A stretch of 64,000 bases of DNA from Candidatus Krumholzibacteriia bacterium (GTDB lineage Bacteria > Krumholzibacteriota > Krumholzibacteriia > JAJRXK01). Below the pieces are notes generated by a model. The model was not told the DNA's origin. It did no database searches and was given only the letters and a program-made list of their open reading frames with translations. Shown here in pieces: positions 56,278 through 60,955 of the stretch. The stretch covers positions 32,001 to 96,000 of the forward strand of contig JBGPIA010000015.1 in NCBI GenBank assembly GCA_041484665.1. Direction: 5' to 3'. Made by a program: the position numbers and the translations under genes. The stretch's first letter is position 1. Every line of letters begins with the position of its first letter.

Positions 56278-57338
56278 CTACGGGACCATGTTGTTCGCCA
56301 GCAATTCCCTGTAGATGACGTCCGCGATCACATGGTACCCAGCCGGACGGCAGTGGCCGTCCTTCTCGTAGTACATGCTCTCCGTCTTCGAAGCCTCTTG
56401 CAGCGCGGGCAATGTACTGATGACGAGGACCTGGTTGCGTTTTCCCCACTCCGCCAATCTCTGTCCCGGGTAGGCGTGCTCCGGCAACCATGGGCCGGCC
56501 TGCGGGATGTGCACGATCACGAGGCGAGCTCCGGCAGACTCCGTGAGCTCCTTGATACGCCCGAGCTCCGCCTCGGCCTTCTGCCACTCCTTCTCGTGGA
56601 AGCCGTTCGCCCGGTAGACTTGCTCGAAATCGGGCGGAATTTCCTTGAGGCGTTGGCGTTCGAGGTACTTGGCCAGAATGACGCGAAAGAAATGGGAATG
56701 CAGGTAGAGCTGCGCCCCAATCGGGCCCATGCGCGCGGCGTCCTTCGTGACCAGGTAGCCGGACGGATCTACTGAGACCGCGTCCAGCCCCAGGTAGGTG
56801 TCCACGATATCGTTGGGAAGGAACCCGACCAGCACCAGATCGGGTCGATATCGCACGCCGTAGTGCTCCAGGAGCATCCGCTCAGGTTCCGGGAAATAGC
56901 GACCGACCCCCGTCTTGATGATCTCCACGCGAGGGTGTCCCCCCCCCCCCCCCGCGCATTGAGCGTCTCCTCGAGCCTGGCCAGATACGTATCCTCGAAC
57001 AACGCGCCGGCGCCGTAGGTGAAGCTGTCACCCAGCCCTACGATCCGGAAAGTCCCCGGCGGCTTCTCGTACGTGTGCTCGACGTCGCGGAAGCCGAAGC
57101 TATTGTGCGCATAGACGTAGTCGAACTCGTCGGTGGGCGAGTGGCCTCGATGCGTGATCGAGGGCTTGGGCTTGTACGGCAAGTAGGGATCGGAGACGTG
57201 ATCGCCGTACTGGTTGTCCAGGCGCGGCGCCTGGTGCCGCGCGCGCGTGGTGATTTCCAGGACACCGAAAATGAGCGCCACCGTCACCAGCAGGTACGCG
57301 AGGAAGAAGAGTCCGTGCTTGAGGCGACGTGGGATCAT
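56278..57338 (-). pseudogene. SGNH/GDSL hydrolase-family protein split by a G15 tract (56939-56953)
   Basis: N-part: TM, NSFGFRD, GLGDSFTYG; C-part in another frame: PDLVLVGFLPND, DGHC...GY; frames join with G13 or G16. Confidence 0.8.
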
Positions 57339-57636: not shown

Positions 57637-58725
57637 CTAGCGTTTCCCGTGGGCGCCCGCCGCCGCCAGCCGCTCGCGCGCCTGCCTCATGGCCGCTTCG
57701 TGCGGATCGATGTCCTCCGCGCGCGCCCGCGCGAGGACCGCGCGCAGCGTCGTGGCGATCCCGCGTACCCGCTGCTGCGCCTGCTCCGCAGACCACCCCA
57801 AGGCCTCCATGCCGGTGATCGCGACCGCGCCTCCACTGTTGATGGCGAAGTCGGGCGCATAGAGGATGCCGCGCTGGCGCAGCGACTGCGCGTCGGACGG
57901 CTGGGCAAGCTGGTTGTTGGCCGCGCCCGCGATTGCACGGCAGCGCAGGCGCGGGATCGTCTGGGCGTTGAGCGTGCCGCCCAGCGCGCACGGTGCCAGG
58001 ATGTCGCAGGCGAAGTCCGGCACGGCGTCCGGGGCAACGAACGTGACGCCCCGGCGGCGCCGCCAGAGGTCGACGGCCACGGCGTCGATGTCGGCAAATG
58101 CCGCGCGGGCGCCCGCTTCCAGCAACAGCTCGATCAACTGGCTCCCGACGCTGCCCGCGCCCTGCACCAGCACGCTGCGTCCACGCAGCGAGGGCTCGCC
58201 GAACAGCTCCTCGGCCACGGCTTGCATGGCGCTGAGCACGCCCAGCGCCGTGGCCCAGGCCGAGTCGCCGGCGCCGCCTTGCTGCGGCGTGCGGGAGAAG
58301 ACCCATGGCCCCGCGGTCTGCGCCACGATGTCCATGTCGGCGGGGCCGGTGCCCACGTCGGGTCCGGCCTGGTACCTTCCGCCGAGCTCGTGCACGATGC
58401 GGCCGTAGCGCTGCAGCAGGCCGGCGCGCTCGGCGGAGGACAGTGGGCGCGTCAGGCCGAGCACCGCTTTGCCCCCGCCGCGCGGGAAGTCGGCCAGCGC
58501 GAACTTCCAGGTCATCATGGCCGAGAGCTGGAGCGCGTCGCGCAGCGCTGCGTGGAAACTGGCGTAGGGCATCAGGCGCGTGCCGCCCGTGGCCGGGCCC
58601 AGGCGCGAGCTGTGCAGCGCGATGACGATCCAGGCTTCGGTCGGCCGGTCGACCTGCGCGAGAAGGCGCTCGCCGCCCCAGGCCTGCACCGCCGCCGAGT
58701 CGAGGATCGCGTCGTCGCCGCTCAG
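57637..58725 (-). CDS. Glu/Leu/Phe/Val dehydrogenase (leucine dehydrogenase-like)
   Basis: LGPATGGTR, MTWKFA, GGGK, GPDVGT, QGAGSVG, PCALG, GAANNQL, APDFAINSGG; start uncertain (CTG 58725 or GTG 58689). Confidence 0.9.
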   Translation of the reverse strand: MSGDDAILDSAAVQAWGGERLLAQVDRPTEAWIVIALHSSRLGPATGGTRLMPYASFHAALRDALQLSAMMTWKFALADFPRGGGKAVLGLTRPLSSAERAGLLQRYGRIVHELGGRYQAGPDVGTGPADMDIVAQTAGPWVFSRTPQQGGAGDSAWATALGVLSAMQAVAEELFGEPSLRGRSVLVQGAGSVGSQLIELLLEAGARAAFADIDAVAVDLWRRRRGVTFVAPDAVPDFACDILAPCALGGTLNAQTIPRLRCRAIAGAANNQLAQPSDAQSLRQRGILYAPDFAINSGGAVAITGMEALGWSAEQAQQRVRGIATTLRAVLARARAEDIDPHEAAMRQARERLAAAGAHGKR

Positions 58726-59246
58726 AGGTAACGCTCCCGCAGTACCGCGACGTGGTGGCGCTCGTGGCCGGCGATGATATAGGGAATCGCGCGGGCGGTG
58801 ATGGCGCGGTTGTTGGCGGTGCCGCGATGGTCCCAGGCCTGCGGGGCAACGCTCTCGAACAGCGTGACGTTGGCAGCGCGCAAGTGCGACCACTCCTCGG
58901 CCAGGCTGCGCAGGGAGCGCCCGTCGAAACCGGCGCCGGCCACGTAGGCATTCTCATCGAATCCGGGTAGCGGCCCGGTCTCGCCGCGCGCGATGGCCAG
59001 TGCGCGGTACGCGAAGATGCGCTCGGTATCGATGACATGGCCGACGACTTCCTTCACGCTCCACTTTCCGGGCGCGTAGCGGTAGGCCGCCTTGGCGTCG
59101 GGCATTGCGGTCAGCAGCGCGAGCGCGTCGTGCAGCTGCGAGCGCAGCCTCTGCAGGATGTCTCCGGCGGGGACGCGCGCGATGTAGCCGGAATAGTACG
59201 GAGGGTACTCGGTGGGCAGGGGGCGGACGGGTCCTGGAATGGGCAT
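58722..59246 (-). CDS. DinB/YfiT family protein
   Basis: YAPGKWSVKEVVGH..DTER, LPGFDEN, AGHERHH. Confidence 0.9.
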   Translation of the reverse strand: MPIPGPVRPLPTEYPPYYSGYIARVPAGDILQRLRSQLHDALALLTAMPDAKAAYRYAPGKWSVKEVVGHVIDTERIFAYRALAIARGETGPLPGFDENAYVAGAGFDGRSLRSLAEEWSHLRAANVTLFESVAPQAWDHRGTANNRAITARAIPYIIAGHERHHVAVLRERYL

Positions 59247-59508
59247 GGCGGTGGATCCTGCCTGTGGCGTGCTGGAGCGGCCCGGCCGAGCCGCGACCTG
59301 GAGCCGAAGGAGCCATGATAGGGCACGACGCCCGGGGGTTCCAGGGGGCGCGTTGAGCCGGGCGGGCGCACGATTGGGCAGGCGCGTGCACGGGCTCGCG
59401 TCCGGCCGGGCGCGCGGGTGGGTGGGCCCCCGCCGGCCCAGCCCGGTCAGGCGTCGGGCGGAGACCTGCTGTCTCCGGCCCTCCGGTGCGCTTTCGCGGT
59501 TCGGGCTG

Positions 59509-59810
59509 GCGACGTGCGCGCGTGCGGGGTGGCAGCATCTCAGGAACCTCCCGGTCGGCCGTTCGCAGTCGGCCTAGGTCCCGTGGGCCCACCGTCTCCC
59601 CTTGCCGACGTTCGCATCCGCTCGTTGGGGACACCCCGCGGGCGATCGATCCGGCCGTTCGCAGTCACGTGGGTACGACGGACGGCCCGGATGCGTTCAC
59701 CGACGTTCGCCGCCTCCTCCATTGCGCGCCCAGTCCACGCATCCACACGGACGTTCGCCGCCGAGCGCACTCCCAAGCTCTGCTGCGCGAATGGTTCGAT
59801 ATTCGCAGTC
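59509..59810. repeat. Regularly interspaced ~15-bp repeat array with unique 32-34-bp spacers (CRISPR-like architecture, no cas)
   Basis: Repeats start at 59509 (degenerate), 59556, 59605, 59652, 59700, 59748, 59796; consensus C(C/G)G(A/C)CGTTCGC(A/C)G(T/C)C. Confidence 0.75.
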
Positions 59811-59954
59811 GGGATCGCCGGGCCTGACCCAGGCCGGCACCGTGAGTCCCTACAGTTGCCCACCGCTTTGATCACGACCGACGACATCGTAGGCCCCCAA
59901 CGCGCCATGGCATGGCGCGTGCCGAACACCATGAGAAGAATTGCAATCAGCGCG

Positions 59955-59972
59955 CGCACAAGTATTTGTGCG
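59955..59972. promoter_or_regulatory. Inverted repeat in AT-richer flank of the array
   Basis: CGCACAA-gtat-TTGTGCG. Confidence 0.45.
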
Positions 59973-60184
59973 ATAACGAGTTGCCAGGGCGCGGCTGAGC
60001 GGCTCAGAAGTCAGTGCCGCCCCGCTGCCCGGGAGACAGGACACATCCCGGGAAACAGGACACCTGGTGTCAACAGGGGCGACACTACACGGTGATACTG
60101 CGCGGTGCCTGATGCGCCAGCGCATGGGGCGCCGCATCCGTCACCCCGCTCGCGCGTGGGGGCGGGTCAGCGCTCCCCTCGGCC

Positions 60185-60955
60185 TCAGCCGCCCGAACGC
60201 GTCCCCGGCTTCTCCACCCAGAACCTCAGCCGCACGTAGTCCGCGATCCAGACGCCGTCGGAGCTGCACAGTTTCGGCCGCAGCTCGTCGCAGACCTCAC
60301 GCAGCATCGCCGCTCGCTCACCCTCCGGCACCGCCGCCGCGAAGCTGCCCGCAAATGTCTCTAGCCAGCCCATCAGATCCCCCGGCAGCCGCGTGGGCCG
60401 CGGGAAGTACTCCATCGACCTCACCACGAAGCCCTGTCCCTCCAGCAGCGCGCGGTACTCTCCGGGTTTGGGGAAGGTCCACGGAACGGCCGTGCGCGGG
60501 TCGACGCTGCGGCGCCTCAGGGCCCTTTCCAGAGCCGCGACGATCGTGGCGATGTTGCCGTCGCCGCCCATTTCTGCGACGAAACGGCCGCCGGGCCGCA
60601 GCGCCCGCCACACCCCGGCGTGCACTGCGTCCTGCCGGGGCATCCAGTGCAGGGCCGCATTGGAGAAGACCGCGTCGAACTCGGCAGCAAACGGCAGCGC
60701 GTGGGCGTCGACCACGCGGGCATCGAGGCCCCGCCGTCGCGCCACCTCGACCTGGGCGGCGCTGCCGTCGACCCCGACGACGACGCACCCGGGCGCGACG
60801 AGCTTCTCCGTCAGCGCGCCGTCGCCGCAGCCCAGGTCGAGGATGCGCTCGCCGCGCCGCGGAGCGAGCAGCTCCACCACGGGCTGGCCGAGCTCCGGCA
60901 CGAAGCGCCCGTGATCGGCGTAGCGACGCGGGTCCCAGTCCTGGGTGGAGGTCAT
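60185..60955 (-). CDS. Class I SAM-dependent methyltransferase (Tam-like)
   Basis: WDPRRY, ILDLGCGDG, FDAVFSNAALHW, LRPGGRF, DYVRLR. Confidence 0.9.
   Translation of the reverse strand: MTSTQDWDPRRYADHGRFVPELGQPVVELLAPRRGERILDLGCGDGALTEKLVAPGCVVVGVDGSAAQVEVARRRGLDARVVDAHALPFAAEFDAVFSNAALHWMPRQDAVHAGVWRALRPGGRFVAEMGGDGNIATIVAALERALRRRSVDPRTAVPWTFPKPGEYRALLEGQGFVVRSMEYFPRPTRLPGDLMGWLETFAGSFAAAVPEGERAAMLREVCDELRPKLCSSDGVWIADYVRLRFWVEKPGTRSGG

Follow-up and report, generated by a model that had tools for sequence, protein, structure and literature searches.

Repeat-spacer array of a Krumholzibacteriia bacterium as a probable cluster of putative recognition sites for HTH-HNH nucleases encoded elsewhere in the genome

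What does a regular array of short repeats and unique spacers represent, when no recognisable effector gene is found near it? The question is raised by a 938-bp gap between two genes in the window, as we call the whole stretch of 64,000 nucleotides that was analysed from a Candidatus Krumholzibacteriia bacterium (source genome G000; 5.4 Mb, 93.65% complete). A sequence-only reading had described the gap as containing an orphan array of one degenerate ~15-bp repeat and had offered three explanations: a guide or ncRNA array acting in trans, an eroded CRISPR, or phased protein-binding sites. The repeats are three types of word and not a single degenerate repeat, and the array is not an orphan, as the same words are clustered elsewhere in the same genome. 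The likely partner, which a reading of the window alone could not reveal, is a family of HNH genes elsewhere in the genome. The features in and around the gap are:

58722-59246, minus strand: DinB_2-family gene, a flanking bystander
59509-59523, strand not assigned: possible decayed word with 6 of 15 mismatches, not significant alone
59556-59570, minus strand: word of type A, GACTGCGAACGGCCG on this strand (the sense of the HNH genes)
59605-59619, minus strand: word of type B, with the core GCGAACGTCGG on this strand
59648-59666, minus strand: word of type A with a GATC extension, the full 19-mer
59700-59714, minus strand: word of a B/C hybrid type
59748-59762, minus strand: word of type C, GGCGAACGTCCG on this strand
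59796-59810, minus strand: degenerate word of type A
59956-59971: AT-rich near-palindrome, where other arrays have an AT-rich box (by eye)
60036-60077: companion module, a direct pair of CAGGACAC (60036-60063) and GTGTCAAC
60185-60955, minus strand: SAM-dependent methyltransferase gene, a flanking bystander

The six main 15-mer copies start at 59556, 59605, 59652, 59700, 59748 and 59796, exactly where they had been read and with the same period of 47-49 bp. The successive spacings are 49, 47, 48, 48 and 48 bp, which leaves spacers of 34, 32, 33, 33 and 33 bp. In a motif-free test of the gap, a 9-mer (at most one mismatch, period 45-51 bp) forms a chain of six, whereas the longest chain in 200 dinucleotide shuffles was one in 32, two in 164 and three in 4 of them, none exceeding three. 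In pairwise alignments the five spacers showed no similarity (z between -1.3 and 1.3 for the 10 pairs), confirming that they are mutually dissimilar, and a decayed tandem duplication of 48 bp is thus rejected as the origin of the array. The program TRF did not report the array. A decayed copy at 59509 is possible, yet with 6 of 15 mismatches to the closest word and less than 5 bits it is not significant alone, and the in-register remnants suspected near 59468 and 59853 found no support, with 10 and 7 mismatches, respectively. Elsewhere in the window, a run of 15 C at 56939-56953 coincides with a frame change between the ORF pieces 56769-57338 and 56278-56928 (minus strand). These pieces seem to be one GDSL/SGNH-like gene, and the run is possibly a phase-variable tract or an assembly error.

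A weight-matrix scan of the source genome, one of the checks that had been suggested, returned 17 clusters with more than one hit. The word family accounts for 13 of these, distributed over 12 loci; the other four were low-scoring and were set aside. The three window words (consensus cores of 15-19 bp) cluster at ten intergenic loci and at two loci inside DUF222-like HTH-HNH genes, and within every cluster they are on one strand. Their spacing is mostly 43-88 bp and becomes wider at degenerate copies; it is frequently not a multiple of three at the intergenic loci and is 60 and 69 within the HNH genes. Although genes make up 84% of the genome, 38 of 48 strict words are outside predicted genes, as called by a custom hexamer model and not by a standard annotator. 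Three single words are inside other genes and one is in dnaE2. The dnaE2 gene (G000:C34:374-5347) has several low-complexity in-frame stretches, one of them with the type A word, and an integron-type integrase directly after it. Spacers of the same word pair showed weak homology across loci (mean z 1.51, n=74, vs 0.12, n=355), and the array at the end of contig C14 is a 183-bp tandem repeat.

Outside the source genome, the type A 18-mer was found in 0 of 200 genomes of the class and as two single matches, with no array, in viral contigs, and the two-word pattern had no matches in genome contigs. Two matches of that pattern in metagenome contigs, within apparent coding DNA, were rejected as chance. 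Searches for related loci with protein P0001 and with A2 confirmed no relative, and a comparison of the gap DNA with 60 relatives gave a single marginal 31-bp match and no orthologous locus.

The two clusters within genes, on the strand reading GCGAAC, are in a gene for a 783-residue protein (G000:C14:62927-65278) and in a truncated paralogue on contig C43. The window word at 59556 is identical to both the linker word and the Leu-Arg-Thr-site word of the C14 gene, and the type B core is present twice in the linker of the C43 paralogue; for the type C word, no cognate HNH paralogue was found in the source assembly. The family is multi-copy in this genome, with several copies broken at contig ends, and its A1 profile matches 119 of 208 genomes of the phylum. 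The HNH domain (PF01844) is C-terminal and was matched, at E<=1, in 14 of the 17 members (E 4.3e-08 for the best of them and 0.25 for the C14 protein), with the C, H and N columns invariant in the family alignment. We call the family only DUF222-like because DUF222 (PF02720) matches few members, and weakly (2 of 17, best E 0.0045); one neighbouring Atlas cluster is 13% DUF222.

These HNH genes carry a 14-19-bp word in their own reading frame at a fixed codon position, often again in the inter-domain linker, and the in-gene word recurs in non-coding same-strand clusters of the same genome. The first linker of the C14 gene contains four copies of the type A word, spaced by 60 bp, and one more copy is at the conserved Pro-Pro-x-Asp-x-x-Leu-Arg-Thr site. 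When the 14-mers of this gene with at least 28% A+T were ranked by their copies outside HNH loci, the one at the Leu-Arg-Thr site was first of 1,387 (14 copies vs a median of 0). At 12 bases the word was not first, with 16 copies vs 33 for a common coding string, and in the C43 gene the type B 14-mer was second (7 copies vs 8). From a single protein, P0002, we infer that the type B word also stands at the Leu-Arg-Thr site. Where this site has Arg, the residue is encoded by CGA every time (17 of 17), compared to 199 of 1,647 Arg codons (12%) elsewhere in the same 19 genes, which points to constraint at the DNA level. Fragments of HNH genes are also scattered in the source genome (C14:120925-121497, C12, C1 and C7). 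One of them, at G000:C14:120925-121600, is 571 bp long and matches an internal part of the C14 HNH gene with 97% identity. It follows, in antisense orientation, a promoter-like stretch that has the same GCCTCCCAG leader as is found before HNH genes, and it is possibly an antisense regulator. At G000:C12:6300-8280, a 3-prime HNH gene fragment adjoins an apparent group II intron with a reverse-transcriptase ORF.

A coupling between genes and arrays predicts that the word in a genome's HNH gene recurs in the arrays of that genome, and this prediction was tested in the relatives. Homologues have different words at the same Leu-Arg-Thr site, and gene, word and arrays are coupled. Copies of the first word number 9 in G001, 11 in G008, 10 in G006, one in G002 and none in G000, and the second has eight in G002 and none in four other genomes. 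A third, the linker word of a sister clade, has 24 and 16 copies in G026 and G011 and none in three others, and a fourth has 14, 9 and 3 in its host genomes G006, G009 and G004, one in G002 and none in 204 of 208 genomes. A further word has four copies in G004 and one in G006, and a second array word, with three copies in G001 and five in G008, sits in the second paralogues of these genomes. Reversed-pattern controls gave 0-1 copies. The 28 word loci examined in the relatives comprise five HNH genes, three single words and 20 clusters without HNH similarity (23 of the 28 loci thus lacking it), and these 20 clusters represent 19 distinct places with 2-8 same-strand words each. The arrays combine words of co-resident paralogues, and those of G002 carry also the variant word of a paralogue in which Gln replaces Arg. 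G003 has the word in its single HNH gene only, with no array copies, and in the HNH loci of G021, G031 and G036 no repeated word was seen. As the words track protein clades, the codon count of 17 of 17 and the gene-word matches correspond to roughly six or seven independent lineages. One array in G026 is a plain tandem duplication with a 73-bp unit.

The shape of the word is associated with the architecture of the protein, as paralogues with one module have perfect palindromes and those with two modules have asymmetric words. In the source genome, the palindromes of the C24 and C8 genes each have three more copies. One shared palindrome is found in 7 of the 15 genes examined from families f2 and f6; it has 75-296 copies in 8 of 8 genomes of genus g5, at most 18 elsewhere and none in G000, and is so abundant in g5 that it could have invaded the gene. 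Some copies of this 14-bp palindrome are in arrays of 38-bp period downstream of genes (L158 and L162), and its very large expansion is limited to this one genus. The homodimer prediction for a one-module protein had a score of 0.74 against 0.00 for the best control (contacts agreeing by at least 91% between runs, pLDDT at least 68), with a predicted interface formed by the long helix and the strand-helix part; among solved pairs, 20 of 30 come up to the mark set for this score, as does 1 of 23 single chains, counts that are approximate with the custom alignment. In the AlphaFold model of the C14 protein (mean pLDDT 69.7, pTM 0.67), a unit of long helix, HTH, linker, strand and helices is present twice and is followed by the HNH domain, and the words are in or beside the linker after each HTH. 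The structural neighbours of the HTH part are ParB, Spo0J and KorB domains, a weak match (Z 6.0-7.3, rmsd 2.8-5.4, 91-114 residues aligned) of which the best, a ParB domain with Z 7.3, rmsd 5.4 and 114 aligned, is below the level that the tool calls distinctive. Foldseek had no match at E<=0.001, Noc being found with E 0.3 at best, and Pfam detected no ParBc family in the 17 members. The HNH part is similar to phage and IscB HNH domains (Z 7.0-7.3). The pairing of a dimer with a palindrome, and of a two-module chain with an asymmetric word, is what direct readout of duplex DNA should produce.

The intergenic arrays of the source genome have also a companion in their surroundings. The direct CAGGACAC pair of the module was found 225-562 bp from the last word in six of the nine arrays tested, the tenth being left out as it ends at a contig edge; the module was near 0.4% of 5,000 random intergenic positions (span of 700 bp). 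Single companion halves are present upstream of the C43 HNH gene, and the module is in G000 only among 208 genomes. More than 120 matches to a companion 16-mer in genome contigs were treated as chance, since the second half was present in none of the 80 examined. The module is also on G000:C21:62513-62684 without nearby words, and at the contig end C35:1-264 in a layout identical to the region upstream of the C43 HNH gene.

In three of the relatives (G004, G006 and G009) the arrays have another kind of neighbour, as 7 of 7 distinct non-coding arrays checked are ~190-330 bp downstream of a promoter-like stretch that carries a CAAAC-N4-TTTG-type box. In the source genome, two perfect CAAAC-N4-GTTTG boxes are in the promoter of a dinB-(imuA-like)-lexA operon (G000:C2:752291-752334), and the sequence is a probable lineage-specific LexA box; a literature search for it as a known SOS box gave nothing relevant, and the LexA assignment is our own. 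SOS control of the arrays in G004, G006 and G009 is therefore plausible, and no CAAAC-N4-TTTG-type box was found at the arrays of G000. Two of the boxed loci, L064 in G006 and L121 in G009, have the word array ~330 bp downstream of a boxed promoter that diverges from an apparent integron integrase gene, and the non-coding stretch between promoter and array looks similar in both genomes by eye.

Taken together, the array in the window is probably a cluster of double-stranded, putative recognition sites for the host DUF222-like HTH-HNH nucleases encoded elsewhere in the genome. Protein-binding sites are thus the part of the sequence-only reading that is best supported, whereas their helical phasing is not, as the spacing varies between 43 and 88 bp across loci. 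The HTH modules would read the word, one-module proteins as homodimers on palindromes and two-module proteins (C14, C43) as single-chain pseudo-dimers on asymmetric words. With a copy of the word in its own gene, the protein could dock there and damp its expression, a probable self-repression. Binding and occasional nicking by the HNH domain beside the word may then lead to repair by local duplication and by conversion from other copies, a process that would multiply the words and scramble the intervening DNA into word-spacer arrays. The resulting arrays may act as sinks for the nuclease, and the spacers would be filler and not guides. More tentatively, the system may represent a widespread class of elements, selfish or domesticated, that is so far undescribed: an HTH-HNH nuclease would have its recognition word within its own coding sequence and would actively multiply this word over the chromosome, to as many as ~300 copies. 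The tandem-duplicated members would have moved past the palindrome rule to asymmetric specificities of 14-19 bp, and the arrays, as non-autonomous products, would serve several paralogues as a common sink, perhaps SOS-controlled in some lineages.

The multiplication of the words could also be more direct. A nuclease that takes the word from its own gene or transcript and copies it into DNA breaks at a fixed distance from an existing word, leaving old local DNA as the spacers, would explain the near-constant period with unrelated spacers in the window, and the type A word in a low-complexity stretch of dnaE2 resembles an in-frame insert by eye; the scattered HNH gene fragments are consistent with it as well. 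We nevertheless consider such copying unlikely, as spacings of 43-88 bp are seen at other loci, several arrays consist of plain tandem duplications (the 183-bp unit on C14 and the 73-bp unit in G026) and spacers of the same word pair are homologous across loci. Moreover, the contigs of four DNA sequencing runs (24 listed), at a depth of ~2-5 and with partial cover of the array, contained neither an empty allele nor a variant inside the array. An apparent joint at 59575-59646 in these contigs was the linker of the C14 HNH gene mis-laid, and not an array variant.

Should the word act at the level of RNA, it could be a guide derived from the nuclease mRNA, or array transcripts could use it as a protein-binding handle and titrate the nuclease in an antitoxin-like manner. 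The words of a cluster are all on one strand, the arrays of G004, G006 and G009 are behind the boxed promoter-like stretch, with the box found twice before the dinB-lexA operon of G000, and an mRNA guide would account for the joint change of gene and arrays. Still, the perfect palindromes of the one-module family suit a dimer on duplex DNA, no conserved RNA fold and no box were found at the G000 arrays, and the predicted structure has HTH modules and no known guide-binding domain. Action through RNA is therefore improbable.

It is improbable, too, that the words are maintained by another host protein, such as a regulator or nucleoid protein, or by an unrelated repeat process, and are only collected by the HNH genes in tolerant linkers. 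Every paralogue carries a word of its own at a single conserved codon position, the arrays contain the words of the resident paralogues including the Arg-to-Gln variant, and no Y1/RAYT transposase was found in G000. On the other hand, REP elements are known inside genes, as outlined in PMC3733652, and the word in dnaE2, the three single words in other genes and the g5 palindrome with its hundreds of copies are compatible with such passive collection.

The 32-34-bp spacers had suggested a heavily eroded CRISPR or a non-canonical guide array acting in trans, and we find both very improbable. CRISPR repeats are roughly 23-47 bp, near-identical and of fixed period, and orphan CRISPR arrays exist. 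The regular period, short repeats and mutually unrelated spacers of CRISPR length are seen at the window locus alone; in contrast, three alternating word types of 15-19 bp are found over the 12 loci at 43-88 bp spacing, also inside ORFs, with weak homology between spacers of the same word pair. Searches of the window spacers against phage and plasmid sequences, in databases sparse for this lineage, gave no significant match (best E 0.3), and the host genome had no near-full-length match. The RNA fold of the array region did not exceed shuffles (z 0.06 and -1.19), Rfam gave sub-threshold noise only, and a scan of the gap for sigma-70 promoters and terminators found none. The spacers are also identical in the covered parts of the four sequencing runs. 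No match to Cas1 (PF01867) or Nop (PF01798) was found in the 93.65% complete source genome, although the Pfam Nop profile may miss distant Tas proteins. A CRISPR-like array on contig C42 (G000:C42:1-950; 16 copies, first two spacers identical) has a different, longer repeat and a period of 61. TIGR-Tas systems, according to the outline in PMC12045711, are built of 36-nt units in which edge and loop repeats alternate and two spacers of 8-12 nt are present, unlike the single 32-34-bp spacers at a period of 47-49 bp in the window, which has DinB_2 and methyltransferase genes as neighbours and no adjacent Nop-domain Tas gene.

Finally, a coding origin, either a 16-residue repeat of a conserved protein in the 139-codon ORF 59540-59959 (minus strand) or a decayed HNH gene, is largely refuted and hardly credible: four words are in one frame of this ORF and the gap has the best HMM score of ten array gaps (E 0.075), but the five ORFs crossing the array all score as non-coding in the genome-trained model (-16 to -40 vs +42 to +70 for neighbour genes) and have no Pfam match, intergenic spacings are often not multiples of three, and none of the ten gaps has a significant HNH remnant.

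Compared to known systems, the word system belongs to neither REP/RAYT nor ParB-parS, and it is not CRISPR or TIGR. REP/BIME elements with RAYT proteins (REPtrons) are described in PMC3733652, as far as its outline goes, as short repeats that are specific to a genome and cluster between genes, often immediately downstream of a gene and sometimes within one, and that are tied to a repeat-specific nuclease or transposase. The words are likewise genome-specific repeats coupled to a nuclease gene. Unlike REP, whose tagged and hairpin-forming repeats often come as inverted pairs, they are direct and on the same strand, with no GTAG/CGTC tag in the consensus and no hairpin beyond shuffles, and their partner is an HTH-HNH protein instead of an HUH Y1 enzyme, PF01797 (Y1 transposase) giving 0 candidates in the 93.65% complete G000. 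The word is also inside the reading frame of the partner and does not flank it.

The second comparison concerns the likely mode of recognition. Direct duplex readout by a dimer on a palindrome is established for ParB-parS in the summary of PMC7383237, and the short multi-copy words, as putative duplex sites, resemble those of ParB-parS and Noc-NBS, to which the HTH domain has the weak structural match given above. The source genome has a true parS cluster, in which 10 sites are directly upstream of parA-parB (G000:C20:42202-43066) and the first five are spaced by 55, 54, 54 and 53 bp; with a fixed word and unrelated spacers, it has the same anatomy as the window array. Thus, a binding-site array can resemble repeats with unique spacers. 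Unlike ParB and Noc, the HTH-HNH proteins have no N-terminal CTPase domain by Pfam, a fused HNH domain, a site in their own gene, sites over many contigs, where ParB has its sites near the origin, and two-module members with asymmetric words, and the true parA, parB and parS are separate, on C20. The REP13E12 or DUF222-HNH loci of mycobacteria are multi-copy genes in which a helical N-terminal part precedes the C-terminal HNH domain. In PMC13061034 they are presented as gene-conversion hotspots, and both there and in PMC10589994 they are said to lack a defined function. Our family resembles them in being multi-copy with a C-terminal HNH that has putative zinc-binding Cys/His columns. It differs in that DUF222 matches few of its members, and a self-encoded word and companion arrays are not mentioned for REP13E12 in the account of PMC13061034. 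In the literature, mostly open access and at abstract level, there was no description of self-encoded words or of such arrays, and the gene-word system is apparently undescribed.

It seems that repeat-spacer anatomy alone does not indicate a guide RNA, which is a warning for pipelines that mine genomes for arrays. DUF222-type HNH genes are common, as the match of the A1 profile to more than half of the phylum genomes indicates, and their mycobacterial counterparts are without defined function in the available account (PMC13061034). If the in-gene word is a binding site, the target of each member could be read from its own sequence, which would make the function directly testable. In case this is true, the family would amount to a natural catalogue in which compact single-chain proteins are paired with asymmetric sites of 14-19 bp, and it would provide a non-RAYT route to genome-specific intergenic repeats.
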